From the NCBI GenBank assembly GCA_963674745.2, contig CAXXDV010000001.1, positions 2,048,001 through 2,112,000 on the forward strand: DNA of 64,000 nucleotides, read 5' to 3'. The stretch comes from Desulfosudaceae bacterium. GTDB lineage: Bacteria; Desulfobacterota; Desulfobacteria; Desulfobacterales; Desulfosudaceae. Below are positions 6,555-59,776 of this stretch, in pieces (positions within the stretch are counted from its first letter, which is position 1; every line of letters starts with the position of its first letter). The position numbers and the translations under genes were made by a program. The notes beneath the pieces are model-generated. The model was not told the DNA's origin. It searched no databases and saw only the letters and a program-made list of their open reading frames with translations.

Positions 6555-7949
6555 TTAGTGGCTTGCCCGGTATTCTGCCAGCGACGCCTGAATGTCTTCG
6601 ATCAGCTCTTTCGGGAAGATCCTTCCGGCCAGTTTTTTCTGGACTTTTTTACTGGCTTCTTTGATGACTTTCATATCTTCGGCTGAGAATATTACGGGGG
6701 TCATCCCGCATTTTGATTCAAAGGCCTTGATACATTTGGCTTCATAACTTCTGACCTGCTGCCGCCATTCGGGCTCAAGAGAATTGAACAGGGAAACAAT
6801 AATCTCCTGAACATTGAAGGCAAAGTTATCGGACGCCCCTGTCTGGGCCTGGATTTTGTCTTTGGTCTGGGTGCTGACGACAATGGCCGCCGGGGAATAG
6901 AACAGCGGTGGTTTGATAATATAATTGACATATTGATAGGCCTGCATTCCCAAAAACCAGGCCGCCGGGCCGGTGGCGGTGTCGGCCAGTCCGGTACTGA
7001 GGGCGGAGATTGCCTCGGGTACGGCCACGGGAATGGCATTGATCTTCAGCTCATCAAATAAAGTGGTCTCTACCACGCCGAACCAGGTATACGGCTTCTG
7101 CTTTCTGAGGTCTGCCAGCCCGGTTACTTTGTATTTTGAAAAAAAGTAGAAAAACCCGGTGTCAATCAGGGCACCCAGGATGTACCCCTTTTTTTCAAAG
7201 CCTTCATCCAGCCGTTTCCTGAATTTTTTCAGAATATAGTCAACTTCGTCGTAATTGTCGAACAAAGCCGGCATCAAGAGCGCCGACGCATCCGGAGAAG
7301 CCGTCAAAACGCCTACAGCCGTACAACCGCAGCCGTCAAGCTGGCCGACATCCATTTTTCTCAATATGTCGGCATCTTCTCCCATGACACCGCCGCCGTA
7401 TATTTTTAATTTAACCTTACCGCCTGTCAGTCGATCAAGTTCTGGAATCGCTACGGTTTCCGGTATGAGCAACCAGGGTGTGCCCGGAGGCGCCAGGGTG
7501 CCGACTTTGATCAGGATGGGGTTGTCTTTTTCAACCGGTGATGACCCCACGCGCCACAAAATTTTCTTGAAATCCGGCCACTCCATGACCGGAGAAAAAA
7601 GCGCGTTGATACGTTCCGGCATTTCGTTCAGAAGATATCGGGACGTCTTATGCTGATCCATCAGGGAAAGCAGGGCCGCTTCGACCATGGATTCAAGCTT
7701 GCTTTTTTGTAATTCACCGGTGTTCAAAAGGGTTTTTAACGCCTGCTGCTGCCGTGCCGCTTCAGGTCCGTCATCCTGACCGGCCCACAAGACCGTCAGG
7801 TTGTCTTTGATAAGGCGCTGCGCTTTCTGGTCGGAAACGCTTGCCGCTGTAACGGTTAATGCCTGGCCCGTGATAAATGTTAAAAGAAGGATGAAAAGGA
7901 AGCCTTTTCGCAAGGGGGCTTTTTTGGCCGGAAAATCAAAAACAATCAT
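6555..7949 (-). CDS. dctP: TRAP substrate-binding protein (DctP/TatP type) with N-terminal extension, paralog 6
   Basis: KVGTLAPPGTPW...KIYGGGVMGED..ILRKM.VGQLDG; signal peptide. Confidence 0.88.
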   Translation of the reverse strand: MIVFDFPAKKAPLRKGFLFILLLTFITGQALTVTAASVSDQKAQRLIKDNLTVLWAGQDDGPEAARQQQALKTLLNTGELQKSKLESMVEAALLSLMDQHKTSRYLLNEMPERINALFSPVMEWPDFKKILWRVGSSPVEKDNPILIKVGTLAPPGTPWLLIPETVAIPELDRLTGGKVKLKIYGGGVMGEDADILRKMDVGQLDGCGCTAVGVLTASPDASALLMPALFDNYDEVDYILKKFRKRLDEGFEKKGYILGALIDTGFFYFFSKYKVTGLADLRKQKPYTWFGVVETTLFDELKINAIPVAVPEAISALSTGLADTATGPAAWFLGMQAYQYVNYIIKPPLFYSPAAIVVSTQTKDKIQAQTGASDNFAFNVQEIIVSLFNSLEPEWRQQVRSYEAKCIKAFESKCGMTPVIFSAEDMKVIKEASKKVQKKLAGRIFPKELIEDIQASLAEYRASH

Positions 7950-7975
7950 CGTTCACCTCGGTATTTATAGTGTTT

Positions 7976-9403
7976 TTATGGATTATGGGTTTTTCTGTAA
8001 TCTGTCAGCGTTTGTTGAATATCACCTATCAATTCTGCGCTGAAAACCTTTCCGGTCAGTTTCTGCTGAACGGCTCGTTCCGCTTTTTTGATAAGCGCCA
8101 TATCTTCGGATGAAAATGTCAATGCCTGCATACCGCATTTGGTTTCAAACGCCTTGAGGCTTTTTGCTTCGTAAAGGCGTATCTGTCGCTTCCACTCCGG
8201 TTCCAGGGTAATGAATTCCGAAACCAGCATTTCCTGGAAATTTTGCGCAAAGACGTCAGTGACACCCAGATGCTTCTGCAGCCGGTCTTTAATATCGGTG
8301 CTGGTAATAACGGCCGCGGGAGAATAGGAAAGGGGCGGTTTGAGATAAAATCCGACGTATTGATACGCCTGCATACCCAGCATCCAGGCCGCGGGGGACA
8401 ATGTCGCGTCGAATTTACCGGAACTGAGGGCGGATACGGTTTCAGGGGATTTCACATGGACGGCCTTGAGGCCCAGTTCGTCATAAAAGGTGGTTTCCAG
8501 AATGCCGAACCAGGTCTGAATTTTCTGGTTTTTAAGCCCCTCCAGGCCGGACACATAATTTTTTAAAAAAACATTGAAAAAGCCGGTGTCAATCAGGGCG
8601 GCCAGAAGGTATCCTCTTTTTTCAAACGCCTCGTCCAGCCGTTTTCTGAATTTTTCACAGATGAAATCCACTTCTTCATAATTGTTGAACAGGCCGGGCA
8701 GTAACAGTACCGAGGCTTCGGGACAGGCCCCCAGGACACCCAGTGCGGTACAGCCGCAACCGTCCAGTTGACCGGTTTTCATTTTTTCCAGGACATCGGG
8801 ATCTTCTCCCATAACACCGCTGCCGTATATCTGGATCAGGATTTTTTTTCCGCTTAATGCTTCAATATCGGCAATAACCGTATCTTCCGGAAGGTTCAGC
8901 CATGGCGTGCCGGGCGGGGCCAAAGTGCCGACCTTTATTTTAAACGGATTATCTGGGTCGGCTGCCGATGACAATTCCTTCCAGATGATGCCGCGCATTT
9001 CTTTCCAGTTCAGGTGGGGTGAAAAGAGCGTGTTAAACTGTTCCGGCAGGGCTTTTAACGTATATCGTGACGTTTTATGACGATTCAGAATGGAAAGAAT
9101 CGTTGCTTCCATCATGCTTTCAAGCTCTGCTTTCTTGATTGCCCCGGATGACAGCATGCTTTTTAATGCTTTTTGCCGTGATATCAATTCCGGGCCGAAT
9201 GACCGTCCGGTCCATAAGTCTTCCAGGCTGTCACGCAGAATGTTTTGAAATTTCTGTTTGGCGATGTCCGTCGCCATAGCGGTGCGCGCCTGGCAGAAAA
9301 TCACCATTATCAGCACAAAGCACAGGATGGCCGGTGATCTTTTCATTTTCGTTCGACAATTAAAAACGGTCATAAGGCTTTCTCCGGTTATATAAGGCCT
9401 CAA
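7976..9403 (-). CDS. dctP: TRAP substrate-binding protein (DctP/TatP type), paralog 5
   Basis: Same motifs; true start probably the downstream MKRSP. Confidence 0.88.
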   Translation of the reverse strand: MRPYITGESLMTVFNCRTKMKRSPAILCFVLIMVIFCQARTAMATDIAKQKFQNILRDSLEDLWTGRSFGPELISRQKALKSMLSSGAIKKAELESMMEATILSILNRHKTSRYTLKALPEQFNTLFSPHLNWKEMRGIIWKELSSAADPDNPFKIKVGTLAPPGTPWLNLPEDTVIADIEALSGKKILIQIYGSGVMGEDPDVLEKMKTGQLDGCGCTALGVLGACPEASVLLLPGLFNNYEEVDFICEKFRKRLDEAFEKRGYLLAALIDTGFFNVFLKNYVSGLEGLKNQKIQTWFGILETTFYDELGLKAVHVKSPETVSALSSGKFDATLSPAAWMLGMQAYQYVGFYLKPPLSYSPAAVITSTDIKDRLQKHLGVTDVFAQNFQEMLVSEFITLEPEWKRQIRLYEAKSLKAFETKCGMQALTFSSEDMALIKKAERAVQQKLTGKVFSAELIGDIQQTLTDYRKTHNP

Positions 9404-9593
9404 TCCAACACAGTCTTTATAAAATCAATTATAGTAAAAAAGCTGTAAGTCAAAATGTCAAGAGACATTCGGATTGATGCCTTTCCGAATACCTGCCGGT
9501 GCTTTTGACATGTCAACGAGAAGGTACTGAAAGAATATCGTATCGGGCCGATTCATTTATTTGAAAGGCCCGGGCGGCCGGAATCAGTTCCGG

Positions 9594-10985
9594 CTATTGT
9601 CCGGCTCTGAATTCGGCCAGTGCGTTCTGAATATCATCGAGCAGGTCTTTGGGGAAAATTCTATCAGCCAGCTTCTGCTGCACGGCTTGACTTGCTTTTT
9701 TTACGGCCTGCTGGTCCGCTATCGCAAAAGTGATGCTTTTCATGCCGCATTTGGTCTCAAAGGCCTTGAAGCTTCGTTGCTCGAACACCCTGATCTGCCG
9801 TTTCCATTCAGGTTCAACCGCATTCCATTCAGACGACAGGACTTCTATCATGTTCCGTGCAAATACGGCTGATATGCCGGTCTGCTGCTGAATTCGTTCA
9901 AAGGTTTGGGTACTGACAATAACAACGGCGGGTGAATAAACCAGTGGTTGATCAAGATAAAAAAATGTGTATTGATAGGCCTGCATACCCAGCATCCAGG
10001 CCGCCGGCGCCACATTGACATCGGCCTGCCCGGTATTGAGTGCCGCGATGATCTCGGGAACACCCAGCGGTATGGGCGCAATCCCCAGTTCTTCAAGCAG
10101 CGTCTTTTCTATGATGCCGAACCAGGTGATAATGTTCTGGGCTCTTAACGCGGCCAGATCAGTGGGCTTATTTCTTGAAAACAGGTAAAAAAATCCGGTA
10201 TCAATGACCGCCCACAGGACATAACCCTGTTTTTCAAAGCCTTCATCAAATCGTTTTCTGAATTTTTCTAAAATATAATCCACTTCATCATAGTTTTTGA
10301 ACAAGCCGGGCAGCAGCATCACAGAAGCTTCAGGGCAGGCCTCCAGCACACCCAGGGCGGTGCAGCCGCAGCATTCAAGCCGGCCGTTGTCCATTTTTTT
10401 CAGGATGTCGGTGTCTTCACCCATGACGCCGCCGCCGTATATTTTGATCGAAATCTTGCCATCACTCAGCCGTTCTATTTCAGGAATGGCAATGTTTTCA
10501 GGTACGCTCAGCCATGGCGTGCCGGGCGGGGCCAGTGTACCGACCTTGATCCGGACAGGCGTATCTTTGTTAATCGGTGCGGTCAGTATCCGCCACATGA
10601 TCTCTCTGGCCGTGTTCCAGTTCATATGGGGTGCGAACAGCGCCTCGAAACGGTCAGGCAGGTCTTTTAAAACATAACGGGATGTCTCCTGGCGTTTCAT
10701 TATGGTCCCGAATGCTTTTGCCGTCATATTTTCAAGCTCGCCCCCGGTCACGTCGCCGTTTGTCAACATGCGTTTTAAGGTCTGTTGCCGCTGTTTTAAT
10801 TCCGGGCTGAATTCCCGGCCGGCCCACATGGCTTCCAGGCTGTCGGTCAATATGTTCTGAAACGCATCCCGGGTGGCTTCAGCTGCCATGGCGGGGCTTG
10901 ATGGCAGGAGCAGTATCACCAGGATGGCAAGACAGGCCGGTATCCATCCCCTGGTTTTGAAAAAGCAGTCATTCTTCAGAGCCAT
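9594..10985 (-). CDS. dctP: TRAP substrate-binding protein (DctP/TatP type), paralog 4
   Basis: Same motifs. Confidence 0.88.
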   Translation of the reverse strand: MALKNDCFFKTRGWIPACLAILVILLLPSSPAMAAEATRDAFQNILTDSLEAMWAGREFSPELKQRQQTLKRMLTNGDVTGGELENMTAKAFGTIMKRQETSRYVLKDLPDRFEALFAPHMNWNTAREIMWRILTAPINKDTPVRIKVGTLAPPGTPWLSVPENIAIPEIERLSDGKISIKIYGGGVMGEDTDILKKMDNGRLECCGCTALGVLEACPEASVMLLPGLFKNYDEVDYILEKFRKRFDEGFEKQGYVLWAVIDTGFFYLFSRNKPTDLAALRAQNIITWFGIIEKTLLEELGIAPIPLGVPEIIAALNTGQADVNVAPAAWMLGMQAYQYTFFYLDQPLVYSPAVVIVSTQTFERIQQQTGISAVFARNMIEVLSSEWNAVEPEWKRQIRVFEQRSFKAFETKCGMKSITFAIADQQAVKKASQAVQQKLADRIFPKDLLDDIQNALAEFRAGQ

Positions 10986-11011
10986 GATGTCATTCCCTTT
11001 TCTTTCGAAAT

Positions 11012-12484
11012 CTAATGTGTCGCCCTGTATTGGGCCAGTGCCCGCTGCATGTCATCAATAAGGTCACGCGGGAATATTTTGCCTGCCAGTTTCTGCTGGA
11101 CGGCCTTACTCGCTTTTGCAAGAACCTGTTGGTCCTGGGGTGAAAATGTCATGGCGATCATGCCGCATTTTGTTTCAAACGCTTTTAAGCTTTTTTCTTC
11201 GTAGAGCCTGATCTGGCGTTTCCATTCGGGCTCAATTATGCCCCACTCATACGTCATTATTTCCAGGATATTATGGGCGAAGGTGGCTGATTTCCCCGTC
11301 GTTTTCTGAATTTTTTCTATTATGTGACCGCTGACAATAACGGCTGCCGGTGAGTAAACCAGCGGCGGCTTAAGATAGTAGTTCGAATACTGGTAAGCCT
11401 GCATGCCCAGCATCCAGGCGGCAGGAGCGACGTTGATCTCGGCCTGGCCGGTTGTAAGGGCGGATACTGTATCCGGTACGGCCACGGGGATGGGGTTGAT
11501 CCCCAGTTCACCATAAAACGTTTTTTCTATGGTGCCGAACCAGGTAATGACTTTCTGTTTTCTGATATCTTCAAGACCGGCTGTTTTGTTTTTTGAAAAC
11601 ATGTAAAAAAACCCGGTGTCAATCAGCGCCAGCAGAATGTCTCCCTGATCTTCAAAACCCTTGTCCAGCCGTTTTCTGAATTTTTCAAAAATATAATCCA
11701 CCTCGTCATAATTTTTAAACAGACCCGGAAGCAGCAAAGCCGAAGCCTCGGGACAGGCCTCCAGCACGCCCAGGGCGGTGCAGCCGCAACACTCAAGCTG
11801 CCCTTCGTCCATTTTTTTCAGGACATCGGTGTCTTCTCCCATGACGCCGCCGCCGTAAATTTTGGTCAGAATCCTGCTGCTGCTCAATCGTTCTATTTCG
11901 GGGAACGCAATGTTTTCCGGTACACTCAACCAGGGGGTGCCCGGCGGGGCCATGGTGCCGACCCGGATTAATATGGGATTGTTTTGATCTATTGTGCTTA
12001 CCATCGCCCCCCACATGATTTCTTTGGCCGTTTTCCAGTTCATTACGGGCGAAAGAAGGGCGTCAAAACGGTCAGGGAATGTTTTAGCAGTATATCGGGA
12101 GGTCTTCTGACGATCCATGATGGCAGGAAACACCTTTTTCATCATGTTTTCAAGATCGGCCTTGCTCACCTGGCCGCTTGTCATCATGCCTGTCAGGGCC
12201 TTCTGCCGCTGCTTGAGCGCCGGGGTGAAATCACGGCCTGCCCATATGGCCTCCAGGCTGTCCTGCAATATGCTTTCAAATTCAGCCCGGGTGGCTGCCG
12301 ATACCGGGGCGACTAGCGCCTGCCCGGCGACAATAACCAACAGGATAACGAATATCCGCACCAGAGGCCTGACTGCTTCGCCATACATTTTTGTTATCGC
12401 CATTGTCACGCCTCCTTGTATATTGGTGTGGTCCGTTATGATAAGCATATGAAATAAAACAAATACTTTTTTAGTATCAGGCAA
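11012..12484 (-). CDS. dctP: TRAP substrate-binding protein (DctP/TatP type), paralog 3
   Basis: Same motifs; true start probably MAITK (~12403) after AGGAGG. Confidence 0.88.
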   Translation of the reverse strand: MPDTKKVFVLFHMLIITDHTNIQGGVTMAITKMYGEAVRPLVRIFVILLVIVAGQALVAPVSAATRAEFESILQDSLEAIWAGRDFTPALKQRQKALTGMMTSGQVSKADLENMMKKVFPAIMDRQKTSRYTAKTFPDRFDALLSPVMNWKTAKEIMWGAMVSTIDQNNPILIRVGTMAPPGTPWLSVPENIAFPEIERLSSSRILTKIYGGGVMGEDTDVLKKMDEGQLECCGCTALGVLEACPEASALLLPGLFKNYDEVDYIFEKFRKRLDKGFEDQGDILLALIDTGFFYMFSKNKTAGLEDIRKQKVITWFGTIEKTFYGELGINPIPVAVPDTVSALTTGQAEINVAPAAWMLGMQAYQYSNYYLKPPLVYSPAAVIVSGHIIEKIQKTTGKSATFAHNILEIMTYEWGIIEPEWKRQIRLYEEKSLKAFETKCGMIAMTFSPQDQQVLAKASKAVQQKLAGKIFPRDLIDDMQRALAQYRATH

Positions 12485-12508
12485 ATCCTCAAAATATTCA
12501 AGCCAATA

Positions 12509-13909
12509 TTAATTTTGCGCCCGAAAGGCTTCAAGGGCTTTTTGTATATCTTCCAGTAGGTCTGCCGGAAACGCCTGGCCGGCCATTTTTTTTTGCACGG
12601 CCTTGCTTGCCAGCTCAATTCGTTTTTGATCTTCCGGTGATAATGTTATGACCTTCATACCGCACTTGGTCTCAAAGGCCTGGAGGCTTTTTTGTTCGTA
12701 ATCTCGTATCAGGCTGTTCCACTTTGGTTCAAATGCGTTGAATTCAGAAACGATTATTTCTTGAATATTGTGAGTAAACGTCGAGGAAATCCCCAGTTGT
12801 TTTTGAAGCCTTTCGATCATGCCGGTGCTGACAAAAACAGCTGAAGGCGAGTAAAGCAGCGGCGGTTTGATATAATAGTTAACATATTGATAAGCCTGCA
12901 TGCCCAGCACCCACCCCGCCGGCGCCAGGGAAGCATCTGCCACGCCCAGGCTGAGTGACGAAACGATGTCGGGTACTGACACCGGCATGCCACGAATACC
13001 TATTTCCTGGTAGAGCGTTGTCTGAATGACACCAAACCAGGAAAGCATTCTCTGCTTCTTTAAATCTTCCAAATCGTTGATTTTGTTTTTTGAAAAAAAA
13101 TAAAAAAAGCCGGTGTCGACAAAGGCCCCCACAATGTATCCGCGTTCTTCAAACGCTTTTTCCAGGCGGTTTCTGAATGTTGAGATGATGTAATCGATTT
13201 CCCCATAGTTACGGAAAAGACCGGGCATCAACAGCGCCGATGTATCCGGTGCTGCGGCCAGAACACCCAGCGCGCTGCAGCCGCAGCCGTCAAGCCGGTC
13301 ATCTTCCATTTTCTGCATGACATCGGTATCGCTGCCCATAACCCCGCCGCCGTAAATTTTTACCCGGATTTTGCCCTGGCTCAATTTTTCTATTTCCGGC
13401 AGCAGTATCGTCTCGGGCGCGTTTAACCAGGGGGTCCCCGGAGGCGCCAGGGTACCGATTCTGACCAGTACGGGGTCATCTTCTTTGGCCACGGATGATA
13501 TCGCTCTCCACATGATTTTCCGGAAACCGTCCCAGTCCATATAAGGCGAGAAAAGCGTATTAATGTGTTCGGGAAGAGTTTTTAAAACATATCGCGTTGT
13601 TTTATGGGTGTTCATTATGGTGAGAAGGCTCTGCTCTGTCATGATCTCAAGCTCGTCTTTGCTTACACCACCTGTGGCCAGCATCTGTTTAAGTGTATCT
13701 TGCCGCCGCAACAATTCCGGGCTGGATGTCTGACCGGTCCATAAGACGGTCAGGCTGTCCTGCAATATGTTTTTAAATTCTGCCAGGGAATTGTCTGCTG
13801 CGCTTGTCAATGTCGGTTGCCCTGCCGCGAAAATCAGCATCAGGGCCAAAAAGCACACGGCCGACACCCGGTTCCGCCCGGTACGAATGTTGGAAATGGC
13901 CATGGTCAA
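12509..13909 (-). CDS. dctP: TRAP substrate-binding protein (DctP/TatP type), paralog 2
   Basis: Same motifs. Confidence 0.88.
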   Translation of the reverse strand: MTMAISNIRTGRNRVSAVCFLALMLIFAAGQPTLTSAADNSLAEFKNILQDSLTVLWTGQTSSPELLRRQDTLKQMLATGGVSKDELEIMTEQSLLTIMNTHKTTRYVLKTLPEHINTLFSPYMDWDGFRKIMWRAISSVAKEDDPVLVRIGTLAPPGTPWLNAPETILLPEIEKLSQGKIRVKIYGGGVMGSDTDVMQKMEDDRLDGCGCSALGVLAAAPDTSALLMPGLFRNYGEIDYIISTFRNRLEKAFEERGYIVGAFVDTGFFYFFSKNKINDLEDLKKQRMLSWFGVIQTTLYQEIGIRGMPVSVPDIVSSLSLGVADASLAPAGWVLGMQAYQYVNYYIKPPLLYSPSAVFVSTGMIERLQKQLGISSTFTHNIQEIIVSEFNAFEPKWNSLIRDYEQKSLQAFETKCGMKVITLSPEDQKRIELASKAVQKKMAGQAFPADLLEDIQKALEAFRAQN

Positions 13910-13951
13910 GCCTCCTTATGTTGATGTATGATAAAGGAATATATAATCGGT

Positions 13952-15367
13952 TTAATGCTGAGCCCTGTAGTTTTCGAGCGCCTTGTTTATTTTTTCGATA
14001 AAATCCTTTGAAAAAGCCTTGCCGGCCAGATTCAGCTGAATGGCCTTACCGGCTTTCTCGATTCGCTGCTGGTCTTCAGGGCTAAGCGTAAACGCGCATA
14101 TGCCGCATTTGGTTTCAAAGGCTTTCAGGCTTTTTTCTTCATAGGCTCTGATCTGACGGTTCCATTCCGGTTCAATCGCCATAATTTCAGCAATGATTAA
14201 TTCTTGAATGTTTGATGCCAGGGTATTGGATATCCCCACCTGTTTTTCTATTCTTTTTACGGTTTGCCGGGTGACAAAAATAGCCGTAGGTGAATAGAGC
14301 AACGGCGGCTTGCAGTAAAAGTTCGCGTATTGATAAGCCTGCATGCCCAGCATCCAGGCAGCGGGGGACAGGACGGTATCTCCGGCATCGGTGCCGAACG
14401 CCGAAACAACGTCAGGTACTGCAACGGGTATAGAATTGATTCCAAGTTCTTGAAACAGGGCCGCCTCAATCGCCCCGAACCATGTCAGTACCTTCTGCTT
14501 TTTTAAAGCCGGCAGCCCGCTTATTTTATTTTTTGAAAACAGATAAAAATATCCGGTATCAATCAGTCCGGCAAGTACGTATCCCCTTGCCTCAAAGGCT
14601 TTATCAAGGTCTTTTCTGAATGTTTTGCAGATGTAATCAATTTCGTCATAATTCTTGAATAAACCGGGCAGCAGCATTGCAGATGCTTCCGGAGAGGCTT
14701 CCAGAACACCCAGCGCAGTGCAACCGCATCCGTCAAGCCGGCCGGCGGTCATTTTTTTCAGGATTTCCGTGTCCTCGCCCATGACACCGCCGCCGTAAAT
14801 TTTTAAGCGGACTTTTCCCTGGCTTATTTTGGAAATTTTAGGGAAGAGCATCGTTTCAGGCACTTCAATCCAGGGGGTCCCCGGTGGGCCAAGGGTGCCG
14901 ATGGTGATCCGGACAGGGTCGGCTGCATCAACCGATGACACCAGTGCCCACCACATTATTTTTTCAAACTCCTGCCAGTTCATGACAGGTGAAAACAGTG
15001 TGTTGATCTGTTCAGGGAGCGCAGCCAAGATATATCGTGACGTTTTATACTTATCTACTATGGGAACAAGGGAAGATTTCACCATATTTGAAAGATCGGC
15101 CTTTCCCATAGGGTTTGATTTCAGCAGGGTTTTAAAGGCGTTTTGCTGTTGTTTAAACGCCGGCGTGTGTGATTTTCCGGTCCATAGCGCAACCAGGCAG
15201 TCATTTATGACGGCCTGAATGACCTTCGGAGTTGAATTTTCCGCCTTCGCAGCCGGCGAACCGGCGGCGACAATCATCATAATAATAAGACAGGACAGCG
15301 TCGGCAGTCGTTGAATTTGCAGATGAACTTTAGAAATGCTCATGAAGCCCCCCCCCCTTGAGTTCAA
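13952..15367 (-). CDS. dctP: TRAP substrate-binding protein (DctP/TatP type), paralog 1
   Basis: Same motifs; true start probably MSISK (15343). Confidence 0.88.
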   Translation of the reverse strand: MNSRGGGFMSISKVHLQIQRLPTLSCLIIMMIVAAGSPAAKAENSTPKVIQAVINDCLVALWTGKSHTPAFKQQQNAFKTLLKSNPMGKADLSNMVKSSLVPIVDKYKTSRYILAALPEQINTLFSPVMNWQEFEKIMWWALVSSVDAADPVRITIGTLGPPGTPWIEVPETMLFPKISKISQGKVRLKIYGGGVMGEDTEILKKMTAGRLDGCGCTALGVLEASPEASAMLLPGLFKNYDEIDYICKTFRKDLDKAFEARGYVLAGLIDTGYFYLFSKNKISGLPALKKQKVLTWFGAIEAALFQELGINSIPVAVPDVVSAFGTDAGDTVLSPAAWMLGMQAYQYANFYCKPPLLYSPTAIFVTRQTVKRIEKQVGISNTLASNIQELIIAEIMAIEPEWNRQIRAYEEKSLKAFETKCGICAFTLSPEDQQRIEKAGKAIQLNLAGKAFSKDFIEKINKALENYRAQH

Positions 15368-15592
15368 ATGGCTGACAAACGTTTTTGTCTAATTGTTTTT
15401 TCCGCGTTTTTCTTAACAGCTTCCATATATTCGTTAAGGCGGGTTTTTGAAAGCCGCCGTTCTACCCGGGTTGGAATCGGCATGGACGCCTCGATGATCG
15501 GCGCATAAAATAATCAGTAAAAGCAAAAACGGCCTGCGTCAGCATGACGCAGGCCGAAATGATCACGATCACCCACTGTTTTTTCATGTTTC

Positions 15593-15807
15593 TTAATGGG
15601 ATGCTCTGTATTCCGCCAGCGCCTTTTGAATCTGGTCGATCAGGTCTTTGAAAAAAGCCTTGCCGGCCAGTTTCTGCAAAACGGCTGCACTGGCCTTCTT
15701 GATGCGATCCTGGTCTGCGGGCGGAAGATTCATGGGTGTTTGGATGCCACATTTGTTTTCAAAGGCCCGCAGCGTTTTTTCTCATCGCTTCTGATCTGTT
15801 GTTTCCA
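15593..15807 (-). pseudogene. C-terminal remnant of a seventh DctP paralog
   Basis: WKQQIRSDEKK/(frameshift)LRAFENKCGI...DQDRIKKASAAVLQKLAGKAFFKDLIDQIQKALAEYRASH* matches the paralog C-termini; the rest of the gene is absent. Confidence 0.85.
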
Positions 15808-52694: not shown

Positions 52695-52723
52695 ATGGTA
52701 CTGCTTTGGTACCACACTGTCAA
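52695..52723 (-). promoter_or_regulatory. hicAB promoter (probably leaderless)
   Basis: TTGACA-17 nt-TACCAT, ATG 5 nt later; TGGTACCA palindrome in the spacer. Confidence 0.7.
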
Positions 52724-52737
52724 GCAATTTGACTTGT

Positions 52738-53215
52738 TTATACGGTTTCCCCTATTACCTTATTCATCTTTATACATTCAAGTTGAGTCCCATCAGGCAA
52801 CTCATGAAAATCTGTTCCGTTTTCAACATAACCATGGCGTATGTAAAAGTCCGACGCATTGATTGTAGAACAGAGATGCAGTTGATGAATATTTTTTTCC
52901 TAAAGAGATCGCTTTGAGTTTAAATAAAATTTTTCTGCCTATCCCTATCCCTTTTGAATTTGGGTGTACATAAATCGCACTTATTTCTTTATTCTTTATG
53001 TCAAGAATACCAAACCCTGACAAATTGACTTCTTGTTCCGCAACGATAATGACTTTTTCTTGTATAGCACTCTCGTAAATTTCAGGAAGAAGAATATTTG
53101 TCCATTTATCTATGCTTTCCGGGCTGTAATAGTCCTTGCACAACCATCGAATGGAGGCTTTGTGGCATTTTGATATTTCTTCTAAATCATATGTTGTCGC
53201 CAGTCGTATCTGCAT
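52738..53215 (-). pseudogene. GNAT acetyltransferase cassette gene, frameshifted at A7 run (52892-52898)
   Basis: IYVHP..KGIGIGRKI; removing one A continues ...GKNIHQLHLCSTINASDFYIRHGY...MNKVIGETV*. Confidence 0.8.
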
Positions 53216-53346
53216 TTTTTTTACGTATAACGTCTTCAGCCAAAGGGCGCCAGGGCTTCCACTAACTTGCCTAAAATTAATTTATGTTCAATCCCCATGG
53301 TTGTTCGAAACCCGAGTGCCCTGGCTGTCCACTTGAGCTTCTTGGT

Positions 53347-54056
53347 GTGTGCCGGGCACGGCACATGTTCTTAAAAGTGAGCCAAGGCTATCATATATTT
53401 GATAATTTTGGCAAGTCTTAGACCCAGCCTGATGGAGGCGAAGGGTGTAGCGGTAGTGCAACGGGGTACCGGTGACGGTGCTTCGGGAGGAAGCCGCCCT
53501 GCTGCGGCAGGGTACCGCGAAGGTACGGGATGACGCACAGGAATCGAGTATAAGGCGCGCACGCCGGGACGAGTCTGCACAACAAGGCAAAGTCCTCTAT
53601 CCATCTTAAGGCGTGTCCGTAAACTCGGCATTTACGTACCGAAAGACACGTGCTTACCCCGGGAGATCTCTCCTGTGCCGTACAACGGCTGAGGGTCGGG
53701 TAACCGGCCCTGACCGCAGGGGAGAAGTCAGCAGAAGGCATAGTAGCCGGCGGAAACGAGCCGGGCCTCCCTTAAGCGGGAGAAGTATACCCGGAGGACT
53801 CACCCCGGTGAAGGCCGGAACGGTGCCCGGACCGAATGGCACGGGTAAATGGTGGTGGCAAGTAAGGGAGTATCTCTTACGGGGATAATGCGGCAGCTGC
53901 CGAAATTCACGTAGCGAGCTTTCTCTGAAAACCCGGTGGAACTGGTGGGATAACTCACAGCCGGTCTCATCAGTACCAGCCGAACCGCCTTGGTACGTGA
54001 TCCGTATGCCAGGTGGTGTGGGAGGGGGTAGCCGTGAGGCTACTCCCTATCCCAAT
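53347..54056 (+). mobile_element. ORF-less group IIC-attC intron (710 nt) inserted inverted in an attC
   Basis: 5' GTGTG; CTTACCCCGGGAGATCT and GAGAAGTCAGCAGAAGGCATAGTA landmarks; domain V GAACCGCC..GTACG..CCGTATGCC.GGTGGTGT (CGC triad) at 53982-54020; domain VI ending CCTATCCCAAT. Removing it restores CTTGGT|TATAAG. Confidence 0.9.
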
Positions 54057-54065
54057 TATAAGGAT

Positions 54066-54512
54066 TTAATATGGGTTCTTATATGGTCCCTCCCAGATTC
54101 CCGACAAAACGATCGTTGCTGTAGAAGCACTACGAGTTCTGAAAGTTGCATATCCAGTCTCTCCAGGCTCCAATTTGGGATATATCAGTCGTGTCTTTTC
54201 CCCAACTACTTGTCCATCTTGATCAAGCTCGACGAAGAATACTTCACTTGGGAGTGGTAACTTGCCATTGTATGAAACTCGGCAAGTAAGCCCAGAGATA
54301 GGGTGACAATTATTGATGGTGAATATCTTCTGCAAGTCTCCAGTCAGTTTCATAACGGGAACGCACCAGCCATCCTCGTTGGGGACCATTCCGTACTTAC
54401 TGCAATCTTGGGGATCATAGACTCCTGAGCAGCTTAATACAGCAGAGAAAAGGAGTGCTGAAGCAACCCTGAAAATCAACCTCAAATATTTTATTTCTTG
54501 TCTTTGTTGCAT
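54066..54512 (-). CDS. Hypothetical lipoprotein (cassette)
   Basis: Lipobox VLSC; fills the cassette. Confidence 0.75.
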   Translation of the reverse strand: MQQRQEIKYLRLIFRVASALLFSAVLSCSGVYDPQDCSKYGMVPNEDGWCVPVMKLTGDLQKIFTINNCHPISGLTCRVSYNGKLPLPSEVFFVELDQDGQVVGEKTRLIYPKLEPGETGYATFRTRSASTATIVLSGIWEGPYKNPY

Positions 54513-54729
54513 ACCTTATAACGTCTCAAGCCAATGGAAACCAGGGCTTCCACCAGCTTGGTTAAAGATTATGGTTGTTCAGTTCCCCTAATTTTTCAAA
54601 ACCAGAGTGCCCTGGTTGTCCACTTGAGCTTGATTGTTGAACGAAGCCGCTACGCGGCGGATTAATAAAAAACAAGGTATACTCCAATACGTGCTCAATT
54701 ACGGGCACCCCCAATAAAAGGAGTATACC

Positions 54730-55634
54730 ATGAACGATTCGGAAGTAAAACGTTTCAACCGGCTTTATGAGCGGCACCTGGAGTTGCTCAAGCTTCAGGG
54801 GATGAGTCCGAGGACCATTGATCTCTATGCCCGTTCAGTCCGCCGCATTCGTAACCATTTTGATTGTTGTCCCGACCATTTACGTCCGGAACAATTGGAA
54901 GGTTATTTCTCTCAGCTGGTGGATAGCCATTCCTGGAGCACGGTCAGGGTTGACCGTAACGGCTTGCAGTTCTTCTGGCGGTATGTGCTCGGAAAGGACT
55001 GGGAATGGATCAAGATCGTCAAACCGCCGAAAGTCAAAACCATACCGGACATTCTTACCGTTTCCGAAGTTGAACGGATCATCGGCAAAACCAAGAAATT
55101 GCGTTACCGGGTATTTCTGCTGACAACCTATTCCATGGGATTGCGTCTGGAAGAGACGTTGTCCCTTCAGATCGGGGACATTGATGCTGAACGCAAAAAG
55201 GTCCATATCCGCCGGGGTAAAGGTCATAAGGACCGAATGCTGCCATTGCCGGATCTTACGTTGGAGGGCCTGCGGGAGCTTTGGCGTAAGCATCGTCATC
55301 CTAATTTGTTATTCCCCAATTGCAAGGGTTCTTTAGAAACCATCCGGGCGGCCACCAACTTTATGGATAAAGGCGGCTGTCAGAGGGCCATGAAAGTGGT
55401 CGTCGCCGAATGCGGCATTAAAAAAAAGTATCCATTCACTCCCTGCGTCACAGTTTTGCCACCCACCTGCTTGAACGCGGCTTAAGCCTCCGTCACATCC
55501 AGGCCCTGCTTGGCCATGCCAGTCCCTCCACAACAGCACGTTATACGCATCTAAGCGATATAACGGAGCAGGACAGCCTGACTGTCTTAAATGAGTTGAT
55601 AAATACAATCCATGTTGATTTTAGAAAGGTATGA
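54730..55634 (+). CDS. Tyrosine recombinase (~300 aa) requiring a -1 frameshift at 55422-55428
   Basis: Frame 0 has YSMGLR and GKGHKDR and stops at 55485. The -1 frame continues [17 protein letters not shown]...IQALLGH.S..TT.RYTH and ends at TGA 55634, overlapping the transposase ATG. Confidence 0.88.
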
Positions 55635-56686
55635 TTATGGAACTGGCATCAATTATTGATCAGTACGCTGACAGGTTTATGGAAAAGCACGGCCAAAAAG
55701 CCTTGCCGGGGCATCTTAAAGCCTTGCGTGCCATACGCAGGTGCCGCACTCCTGCCTCCGGAGAATTTCACGTTCAGTGCCCCGGCTGCCAACATGGACA
55801 ATGGAAACCAATGTCCTGCGGGCACCGGAGCTGCCCCAAATGCCAGAATCATGAGGCCAGTCAGTGGATCGACCGGCAGCAGGAGAAACTGCTTCCGGTG
55901 CTTTACTTTATGGCGACGTTTACGCTGCCGTTTGAACTCCGTCCGCTGGCCTGGAACAATCAGCGGGATGTATATTCAATCTTCTTTTCCTGCGTGTCCG
56001 AAACACTCAAGGATTTTGGCTTAAACCCGAAGCAAATGGGCGCAGAAATCGGTTTGACCATGGTTCTGCATACGAACACCCGAAGTCTGGATTATCATCC
56101 TCATATCCATGTGGTGGTGCCCGGCGGCGGGATTGATAAGCGCCGGCGACAATGGAAAAAGAAAAAAGGAAAATATCTGTTTAATGAGTTTAACCTGGCC
56201 ACGGTCTTTCGTGCCCGTTTTCTGGCCGCTTTAAGAAAAGCCGGCCTTTATGTGCCTAAAAATACACCTGCAAAATGGGTCGTGGATTGTGAAAAGGTCG
56301 GTAACGGGCTCCCGGTCATAAAGTACCTGTCCCGGTACTTATACCGGGGTGTAATCAGTGAAAAGAATATTGTGGCCAATGAAAATGGCCGGGTCACCTT
56401 CAGGTACACTGAAAGCGGCACCGGCCATACCCGTTATCGTACGCTTGACGGAGAAGATTTTCTCCAGCTCATTCTGCAGCATGTCCTGCCCAAGGGCTTC
56501 CGCAGGGTGCGCGATTACGGGTTTCTTCATGGCAACGCCAAAAAGACGCTGCAACTGGTGCAATTGATCCTGCATGTCCGGCTTGGAATAAAAACCCAAC
56601 GCCCGAGACCTGCTGTAAAGTGCCCCCGTTGCCACATCCCGATGGTCATCAAAGGGTTCCGTTACGCGGCCTGGAAGCCGGGATAA
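55631..56686 (+). CDS. IS91-family (HUH/Y2) transposase with Zn-binding N-terminus
   Basis: CRT..G...C..C...[39 protein letters not shown]. Confidence 0.95.
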
Positions 56687-56880: not shown

Positions 56881-56941
56881 GTTCAACCCCGGATAAGATC
56901 GTGGCTCGTTACCTCGCACGATCTATCCTTGTTCGTTATGA
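56881..56941 (+). other. Short (61-bp) attC site in + orientation belonging to the element
   Basis: R'' GTTCAAC; arms GGATA[A]GATCGTG[G]C / GCACGATCTATCC with two unpaired bases on the R'' arm; R' GTTATGA. Confidence 0.8.
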
Positions 56942-57069
56942 TTACCCCTTTCGCTACACAGAAAAAACCATGCGATATCAAAAAATTACACGCTTACAAA
57001 ATTTTGTTTAAAAGAATAAATTAAAAAGATTTTGTTATTGGAACAAAATTGCATTATCAGCGAATTTTA

Positions 57070-57285
57070 CTAAATGTTTTCCCAAATGTCATATCCAATA
57101 AAAATTATTATTAGAACACAAAACAAAAGAATTATAATTTTTCTTCTTCGTAGACATTTCGGGCATCGATAAACATATTTATATCTTTCTGTCAGCGACC
57201 AATGATTAAGCACAAGCTCAACATCTTTTTCAGATACTTCAATTCCGCAGGAGGCACATTTCATGTCATTTTTTGCTTTAATCAT
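57070..57285 (-). CDS. Small CxxC..CxxC protein with C-terminal TM (cassette, copy A)
   Basis: CASC...CPKC plus hydrophobic tail; duplicate at 59561. Confidence 0.7.
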   Translation of the reverse strand: MIKAKNDMKCASCGIEVSEKDVELVLNHWSLTERYKYVYRCPKCLRRRKIIILLFCVLIIIFIGYDIWENI

Positions 57286-59287: not shown

Positions 59288-59560
59288 AGAGTTCCTTGAA
59301 GAAAGATAACGGCGGCCGCCAATGGGAGCCAGGGCTTCCACTGACTTGCCTTAAAATTGGTTGCTATTCAACTTCCCCCGAATGTTCAAACCCCGGGGTG
59401 CCCTGGCTATCCTTTGCGCGGCCTTGTTATGATTACCCCTTTCGCTACACAGAAAAAACCATGCGATATCAAAAAATTACACGCTTACAAAATTTTGTTT
59501 AAAAGAATAAATTAAAAAGATTTTGTTATTGGAACAAAATTGCATTATCAGTGAATTTTA

Positions 59561-59776
59561 CTAAATGTTTTCCCAAATGTCATATCCAATAAAAATTATT
59601 ATTAGAACACAAAACAAAAGAATTATAATTTTTCTTCTTCGTAGACATTTCGGGCATCGATAAACATATTTATATCTTTCTGTCAGCGACCAATGATTAA
59701 GCACAAGCTCAACATCTTTTTCAGATACTTCAATTCCGCAGGAGGCACATTTCATGTCATTTTTTGCTTTAATCAT
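59561..59776 (-). CDS. Small CxxC..CxxC protein with C-terminal TM (cassette, copy B)
   Basis: Protein identical to 57070-57285. Confidence 0.7.
   Translation of the reverse strand: MIKAKNDMKCASCGIEVSEKDVELVLNHWSLTERYKYVYRCPKCLRRRKIIILLFCVLIIIFIGYDIWENI

Follow-up and report, generated by a model that had tools for sequence, protein, structure and literature searches.

A compact group IIC-attC intron without a reverse transcriptase gene, probably mobilised in trans, in the integron cassette arrays of a Desulfosudaceae bacterium

We analysed a 64,000-nucleotide (nt) stretch of DNA from a Desulfosudaceae bacterium (hereafter the window, whose positions are used throughout unless a contig is named). 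Positions 53347-54056 of its forward strand represent, with a probability that we put at about 0.8, a non-autonomous 710-nt group IIC-attC intron in which the ribozyme is complete from domain I to domain VI (DI to DVI), a 129-nt stub replaces the reverse transcriptase (RT) gene, and propagation occurred through mobilisation in trans, in the manner of a short interspersed nuclear element (SINE). The element is inserted in the attC site of an integron cassette, and the evidence for its identity comes from its exact ends, its covarying structure, its further copies at other attC sites and its conservation across a wider family.

An intact class C ribozyme without an open reading frame

The ends of the intron, GTGTG at 53347 and AAT at 54056, are exact, being common to six copies in the source genome whose two flanks differ. 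In an Rfam search the forward strand matched the full RF02001 model at 53466-53653 (121 bits), and RF01998 at 53690-53767 at the gathering threshold, a match that a local search extended to 53816 (41.8-49.8 bits), again over the full model. RF00029, the model of DV and DVI, reached only 13.7 bits, at 54004-54056; as one intron census describes its procedure, a limit of 24 bits was applied to this model (PMC8919778), and censuses based on DV would therefore miss the lineage. No RT-like open reading frame (ORF) was found inside 53347-54056, where both strands hold only GC-rich frames of at most 130 amino acids (aa).

Two alignments define the secondary structure. One covers DI-III in 17 relatives, ORF-less and RT-encoding, and its RNAalifold consensus was mapped column by column onto the window; the other runs from the end of DIII to DVI in 12 ORF-less members from 9 genomes. 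The DI-III consensus comprises 140 pairs, 55 of them with compensatory changes; the window copy keeps 136, and RT-encoding introns keep 134-140. From the end of DIII to DVI there are 71 pairs (27 with compensatory changes), of which the window copy keeps 67. In the latter alignment 96.7% of cells are paired; shifting the partners along by 1-3 columns lowers this to 34-46%, and none of 500 shuffles matched the observed values. We discounted helix 1 of this fold, which consists of three invariant pairs, because it conflicts with the closing stem of DIII in the longer alignment and in Rfam. DV carries a CGC triad, which in place of AGC is given as a criterion of class C (PMC7923331), DVI has a bulged A, and the helices of both domains are supported by covariation. 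The intron thus has the six-domain fold of a class C ribozyme, with the conserved DI-III seen in the RF02001 and RF01998 matches and in the paired positions. A first-pass annotation of the window, made from the letters alone, had called an ORF-less group IIC-attC intron with an apparently intact scaffold, precise GTGTG and AAT ends and recognisable landmarks of DI-III and DV/DVI; the Rfam group II models and the consensus folds, onto which all six domains can be mapped, bear this out.

The features of the intron, all on the forward strand, are as follows.

53347..54056 (+), 710 nt: ORF-less group IIC-attC intron, GTGTG...AAT (six copies with identical ends; Rfam)
53352..53662 (+): domain I (RNAalifold consensus; RF02001 covers 53466-53653)
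53579..53582 (+): exon-binding site 1 (EBS1), ACAA, in the loop GCACAACA at 53577-53584 (Rfam alignment; loop-register covariation)
53622 (+): exon-binding site 3 (EBS3), A, pairing with the first T of the 3' exon (covarying column)
53663..53729 (+): domain II (RNAalifold consensus; RF01998 begins at 53690)
53736..53817 (+): domain III (RNAalifold consensus; RF01998 alignment)
53824..53847 (+): conserved hairpin (helix 2) lying after domain III and before the domain IV stub, shared with RT-encoding relatives (consensus fold)
53850..53978 (+), 129 nt: domain IV stub in place of the RT ORF (covarying helices; homology to IVa)
53850-53853/53975-53978 (+): closing helix of the stub
53857-53933 (+): stub IVa, with a Shine-Dalgarno (SD)-like AGGGAG, ACG at 53879-53881 at the start-codon position, and nested hairpins
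53935-53971 (+): stub IVb hairpin
53984..54017 (+): domain V, with the CGC triad at 53986-53988 and a 5-nt loop (helix 9: 14 pairs, 3 compensatory)
54020..54053 (+): domain VI, whose bulged A (54049) lies 7 nt before the 3' splice site (helix 10: 14 pairs, 6 compensatory)

Six copies behind six attC hairpins

The source genome (G000; 5.55 Mb in 3 contigs, 99.96% complete) holds six 710-nt copies with 99-100% identity, at C1:2101347 (the window copy), C1:1482610, C1:1484849, C3:1853775, C3:1852232 and C3:1848265. Any two of them differ by 2-8 nt. Their 5' exons end in TGGT (five copies) or TTGT (one), their 3' exons begin with T, and the flanks on both sides differ from copy to copy. Upstream of four copies lies an attC family of 120 nt, upstream of the other two are shorter attC types, and as single-stranded DNA the flanks of all six fold into long imperfect hairpins.

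Six near-identical copies with exact ends, behind six different attC hairpins, exclude a single dead remnant. The annotation had suggested a search for copies at other attC sites, and a single copy with broken DI-III pairings would have made the element a dead deletion derivative; instead five more copies were found, each behind a different attC hairpin, and 136 of the 140 pairs are kept. Near-identical copies at distinct sites, together with EBS1 and EBS3 sequences that covary with those sites (below), are the hallmarks of a non-autonomous intron. Further partial matches in the genome, to positions 1-511 of the intron at 94% and 631-680 at 100%, both come from one RT-encoding intron.

Insertion into the R'' box of an attC site

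The window from about 52020 to its end belongs to an integron cassette array that extends from C1:2100022 to C1:2116431, and beside the array, beyond the window, lies an integron integrase above the TIGR02249 cut-off (C1:2117407-2118342, +). A profile built from nine attC sites of the window gave, with nhmmer, 167 hits in the source genome, distributed over at least 8 arrays or clusters; three integron integrases exceed the TIGR02249 cut-off (C1:2117407, C3:2348261 and C3:27977), and the genome is unusually rich in integrons.

The attC-profile match at C1:2101224-2101346 (window 53224-53346) breaks off precisely where the intron begins, having reached position 127 of a profile about 142 positions long. 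At the corresponding place, intact attCs of the window have (T/G)GTT and then RRRY-like bases. This puts the insertion between GT and T of the R'' complement (CTTGGT/TATAAGG, the slash marking the insertion point), so that the intron separates the R'' box from the remainder of the attC. This attC is the 20th of 21 profile-detected attCs, numbered from the integrase. Its surroundings are listed here.

53228..53346 (+): 5' exon, attC bottom strand up to GT of the R'' complement (...CTTGGT) (attC profile; single-stranded DNA hairpin fold)
54057..54063 (+): start of the 3' exon, TATAAGG, the remaining R'' complement (comparison with intact attCs)
54066..54512 (-): ORF of the cassette whose attC holds the intron, 148 aa, no Pfam family
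52823..53215 (-): next downstream cassette, GNAT acetyltransferase

The cassette ORFs, which encode the 148-aa protein, the GNAT acetyltransferase, HicAB and MazEF, lie on the reverse strand; the intron is carried by the forward strand, corresponding to the attC bottom strand. The placement given by the annotation, at TTGGT/T of R'' and opposite to the cassettes, is thereby upheld. IIC-attC introns are described as inserting at R'' (TTGT/T) on the bottom strand of attC sites, in antisense orientation relative to the cassettes, and as a clade defined by the intron-encoded protein (IEP) (PMC3001079, PMC7923331). Strand, box and orientation agree with this description; the site is TGGT here and not TTGT, and the intron has no IEP gene of its own, hence no IEP to place in the IIC-attC clade.

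A target rule read by EBS1 and EBS3

The type of EBS1 loop follows the register of insertion in all 29 elements listed with flanks: loops of the form CACAACA or CACCACA occur with insertion after GT, and CAACACA loops with insertion one base later, after GTT. The first base of the 3' exon is T in the former group and mostly A in the latter, and the column of position 53622 varies with it, being A in 10 of 10 introns with a T exon and U in 7 of 7 with an A exon (17 aligned introns), which fits EBS3. Among independent metagenome elements carrying the motif (n=19), the predicted EBS3 pair is Watson-Crick in 14 and a wobble in 1.

Within the source genome, position 53581 is A in the window copy and C in four of the six copies; the latter thus carry ACCA, which fits TGGT. 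Among the listed relatives there is no association between EBS1 variant and site type: ACAA is found at five TGGT and five TTGT sites, ACCA at three TGGT and two TTGT sites, and a CCACACA loop at one TTGT site.

A structured remnant of domain IV

The six helices of the stub (helices 3-8) comprise 31 pairs, and in 16 of these both partners have changed within the family. Roughly the first 80 nt of the stub align with the beginning of domain IV in RT-encoding relatives, through the SD region, the start codon and a hairpin over the first codons, with ACG at 53879-53881 standing where those relatives have an ATG or GTG start. Contigs from sequencing runs that contain RT-encoding relatives depart from the mini-intron at 53851 and rejoin it at 53977. 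The annotation had described about 150 nt with no recognisable RT remnant; the stub is in fact 129 nt, indeed without a coding remnant of the RT, though the 5' portion of domain IV survives in it as a remnant that includes AGGGAG and ACG.

Domain IVa is reported as the main IEP-binding region in subgroup IIA introns (PMC2882425). By analogy, stub IVa may be a binding site for an RT, and the retention of a region homologous to domain IVa suggests continued dependence on a protein.

An RT-encoding relative with a broken gene

The source genome also contains an RT-encoding relative of about 1932 nt at C3:~1855134-1857065 (-), behind an attC at TTGT/T (locus L011, ~11135-13066), as the annotation had proposed to look for. 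Its DI-III are 94% identical to those of the mini-intron, its domain V is 100% identical, and the distal stem of its DVI differs yet still pairs. The encoded protein matches RVT_1 (154 bits) and GIIM (76 bits); it shares 49% identity across 408 aa with the ltrA protein of an intron that lies in a class 1 integron of an E. coli IncC plasmid, and 61-64% with class C RTs from Bacillota. Ten close homologues of this RT were examined (named Desulfobacterales and other metagenome-assembled genomes), six of them uninterrupted at 446 aa. Among RT relatives the names Desulfobacter, Desulfobacteraceae and Desulfobacterales occur, which places the order.

No other cognate RT was found in the source genome by tblastn and a GIIM search of the 3-contig assembly. 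Two identical copies of a different intron (RF02005 111 bits, DV 33.9 bits) encode an intact 458-aa RT, in which GIIM was undetected; they lie in cassette arrays, in cassette orientation, at C1:~2271000-2273130 (L009, ~720-2830) and C3:~2339000-2341000 (L010). A third type of intron, at C3:~1849530-1851730 (+) (L011, 5534-7731; RF02012, and RF00029 at 66 bits), has a frameshifted RT and lies among the mini-intron copies on the opposite strand.

Points against mobilisation in trans

Several observations weigh against our interpretation. One concerns the only cognate RT: following codon 310 of its 446-codon frame there is an in-frame TAA, which separates the RT domain from the X domain; nine of the ten close homologues have C, Y or D at this position, and the tenth is frameshifted there. 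GIIM occurs at two places in the genome only, both in broken genes, and the other intact intron RT, the 458-aa protein present in two copies, is only 35% identical. No functional related IEP was thus found in the genome. Because of the in-frame TAA, we infer mobilisation in trans for the past and do not regard it as shown for the present; with the cognate RT gene prematurely stopped, the copies in this genome are probably stranded now. The annotation's proposal of a non-autonomous mini-intron mobilised in trans thus stands as regards an intact, multi-copy element accompanied by an RT-encoding relative, and as regards its past movement, but not as a statement about the present.

The same difficulty extends to other genomes, since an uninterrupted close RT was found in only one of the nine genomes with complete ORF-less copies (G331: 59% identity, residues 17-438), most of these being drafts. 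Elsewhere there are RT pieces with stops (G071), RT pieces together with an intact RT at 45% (G208), or a 57-aa piece at a contig end (G115), and in G028, G083, G346 and G282 no RT was found at E <= 1e-40 above 36% identity. All but the source genome and G071 are drafts of at least 50 contigs, so that absence of an RT is not established; moreover, cassette transfer can bring a passenger intron into a genome that lacks the RT.

The ACAA of the window copy mismatches its own TGGT site at -3, in line with the annotation's remark that the EBS1 loop fits TTGT better than this site. ACAA does pair better with TTGT, but the mismatch has little weight, as four of the six copies carry ACCA; and since -3 is mismatched in about half of the relatives that insert after GT, this pair is clearly dispensable.

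A promoter and terminator scan of 52700-54700 gave two promoter-like sites, against a mean of 2.9 in shuffled sequence, and no terminators. Finally, the four sequencing runs examined (of 23, all as contigs) contain no contig that spans the entire stretch and none in which 53346 is joined to 54057. Since many variant relatives occur in the best three of these runs, they tell nothing about expression or empty sites in this organism; all that the RNA run contains is a relative at 90-95%. From this relative, a 244-nt metatranscriptome contig (run X21) has the intron's 3' end joined head-to-tail to its 5' end (window 53346/54053 junction), a weak hint of an RNA circle that could as well reflect tandem copies or DNA in the library. 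In a DNA-type run (X1), one contig carries two introns about 7 nt apart.

A family of ORF-less introns in the order

Matches to the mini-intron were found in 9 of 40 related genomes, and 102 of 400 further sampled genomes of the order match a query of DIV-DVI, most of them in DV-DVI only. Among the matches listed, contiguous ones through the ORF-less stub occur in at least nine genomes besides the source genome. Eight other genomes yielded complete ORF-less elements that share this stub and measure 678-921 nt: G208 (two copies), G071 (four), G115, G028, G331, G282, G083 and G346. In G071, a complete genome from this order, the four ORF-less attC mini-introns and a cognate RT in decay are accompanied by more than 40 copies of a different group II intron RT, which shares 31-35% identity with the query. 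Decayed forms with RT remnants or deletions in DI-III also occur in relatives (G006:C58, 884 nt; G036, 768 and 1075 nt).

In metagenome contigs, a signature consisting of the end of DIII, a gap of 100-130 nt and the start of DV matched 115 stretches. Inspection of 80 of these gave 31 complete elements (25 distinct) of 676-859 nt, 25 of the 31 inserted after GTT. Upstream DNA folds better than its shuffles, with a median z of -2.25 and z < -2 in 13 of 24 (distinct elements with at least 80 nt upstream). In a plasmid collection searched with blastn ('distant', 26 records), no ORF-less relative was found, and only DV-VI (about 75 nt) matches known integron introns.

A single origin of the ORF-less forms was considered and is not supported by the ribozyme sequences, although the domain IV stub is shared. 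In a tree of DI-III plus DV-VI (28 rows), with the ORF-less group defined by domain IV, at least four changes are forced on well-supported branches, and the approximately unbiased (AU) test, run after the tree had been inspected, rejects holding these forms together (p 3e-58). In some cases, as in G208, ORF-less copies fall beside the RT-bearing intron from their own genome. This pattern may reflect exchange of ribozyme segments with autonomous introns or, alternatively, repeated similar deletions constrained to keep domain IVa.

One case points to recombination within these introns. The copy at C1:1482610 (L003, C1:1481110-1484819) and a 1824-nt intron with an RT remnant in another genus (L013/L035, G009:C6) are 97.6% identical over 676 nt, comprising DV-VI and some 590 nt of 3' flank; in DI-III their similarity is only 83-88%, and there is no relationship between the attCs on the 5' side. 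The simplest reading is that a crossover inside the intron would have re-paired the cassette with another attC. It has reportedly been proposed (Leon and Roy, 2009) that IIC-attC introns form cassettes, and this crossover fits such a role. Here the same cassette is joined to different attCs in two genera, with the break inside an intron.

Proposed mechanism and competing explanations

We propose that the intron, once transcribed and spliced, would recognise the folded bottom strand of an attC, as its RT-encoding relatives do, and reverse splice between GT and T of the R'' complement. EBS1 (ACAA or ACCA) would read the last bases of the 5' exon and the single A of EBS3 the first T of the 3' exon. 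Conversion to DNA would presumably be carried out by the RT of an autonomous relative, which might bind the 5' part of domain IV retained in the stub, the main binding site of the protein in other group II introns. In the source genome the intron would have spread recently to at least six attC sites, after which the stop in the RT gene probably stranded the copies.

It is quite improbable that the element is instead an inert deletion derivative, its copies multiplied by DNA-level events such as cassette duplication, integrase movement or homologous recombination. The broken cognate RT, the decayed short forms of G006:C58 and G036 and the recombination inside introns count in favour of such a history, but all six copies have exact ends while their flanks and attC types differ, and pairing in the scaffold is no poorer than in RT-encoding relatives. 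Neutral relics would be expected neither to have stub helices that covary across genera nor EBS1 and EBS3 sequences that follow their targets. Adoption by the host, through the fixing of neighbouring cassettes by a disabled attC or through an outward promoter that serves the downstream cassette, seems to us highly improbable. The R'' box is split from the rest of the attC and outward promoters are described in IIC-attC introns (PMC3001079); against this, the promoter-like sites in the scanned region are not above chance and lend no support to an outward promoter, no site in the 5' part of the intron faces the downstream cassette, and spread to unrelated cassettes fits a selfish element better.

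A further possibility, which we consider unlikely, is a protein-independent ribozyme of the hydrolytic endonucleolytic ribozyme (HYER) type, which would cut or reverse splice into the folded single-stranded attC without a cognate RT and be kept selfishly or through an effect on integron recombination. HYERs are described as ORF-less group IIC introns with protein-free hydrolytic endonuclease activity (Liu et al. 2024, as cited in PMC12990946 and PMC11754743), and the present element is likewise an ORF-less IIC ribozyme of conserved structure, with an intact close RT in just one of the nine genomes that hold complete copies. New DNA copies nevertheless require reverse transcription, the region homologous to domain IVa has been kept, which suggests dependence on a protein, and draft assemblies may hide RT genes. 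Mobilisation in trans by a related RT accordingly remains our preferred explanation. Beyond it, one may picture an old lineage, maintained by selection, of ORF-less attC-homing ribozymes of about 700 nt, SINE-like parasites of integrons and autonomous IIC-attC introns that are common in sediment Desulfobacterales, often live without an intact cognate RT, exchange ribozyme segments with resident autonomous introns and, through recombination within intron copies, re-pair cassettes with foreign attCs; taken to its extreme, the picture would have the RNA attack single-stranded attC DNA unaided by protein, as HYERs do with their targets. We advance this wider picture as a speculation that is rather doubtful as a whole.

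Relation to known systems

Precedents are known for each part of the system, namely IIC-attC introns, the ORF-less introns of Thermosynechococcus and HYERs. With S.ma.I2 and its relatives (Quiroga 2008; Leon and Roy 2009), as described in PMC3001079, PMC7923331 and PMC4424553, the element shares class C membership, a CGC triad in DV, and an antisense position at R'' of the attC bottom strand. It differs in having no IEP gene and a covarying 129-nt stub instead, and most sites are TGGT/T here, with part of the wider family at GTT/R, unlike the TTGT/T of those introns.

For Thermosynechococcus elongatus, mobilisation of ORF-less introns in trans by driver IEPs is reported as experimentally demonstrated (Mohr et al. 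2010, PMC2882425). In that account the ORF-less TeI3 introns keep domain IVa, outnumber their ORF-containing relatives, have sites that match their EBS sequences and are mobilised by related IEPs; the present element shares the first three features and was probably mobilised likewise, and its cognate RT is broken. The TeI3 introns are described there as another intron class, confined to one genome, that uses long pairing between EBS and intron-binding site (IBS) sequences and not a DNA hairpin, whereas the ORF-less form here is spread over many genera.

Compared by description only, HYERs resemble the element in being IIC ribozymes of about 0.6-0.7 kb, without a protein-coding region and with a short target-recognition sequence (PMC12990946, PMC11754743); in these secondary accounts we came across nothing to say that attC is a HYER target. 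Group II introns without an ORF are summarised in PMC4424553, after Simon et al. 2008, as rare in bacteria, short-lived and usually found near related RT-encoding introns. The source genome does hold a closely related RT-encoding intron, but, unlike the short-lived introns of that summary, the lineage shows a conserved structure in different genera and is frequent in metagenomes. We found no description of an ORF-less IIC-attC family in the literature searched; subscription papers and the supplements of HYER papers, which lay outside the search, may bear on this.

A compact natural ribozyme that reads a DNA hairpin and about four bases would make class C target recognition, the action of RTs in trans and protein-free activity testable. 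For the integrons themselves, identical intron copies in several arrays are substrates for recombination, and their insertions split the R'' box.

Other features of the window

Between two attCs of the cassette array, at 54730-56686 (+), an IS91-family transposase (Y2_Tnp, Zn_Tnp_IS91) follows a 251-aa tyrosine-recombinase-like ORF. Three further array sites also carry this recombinase-like ORF, in each case together with an extra matching piece of 70 aa that contains a TAA. An exact direct repeat of 300 nt occurs inside the array at 56935-57234 and 59426-59725, 2491 nt apart, and looks like a duplicated cassette segment. At 6555-15721 there are six tandem repeats of about 1.4-1.6 kb each, with 60-75% identity, probably a repetitive gene or a gene family.

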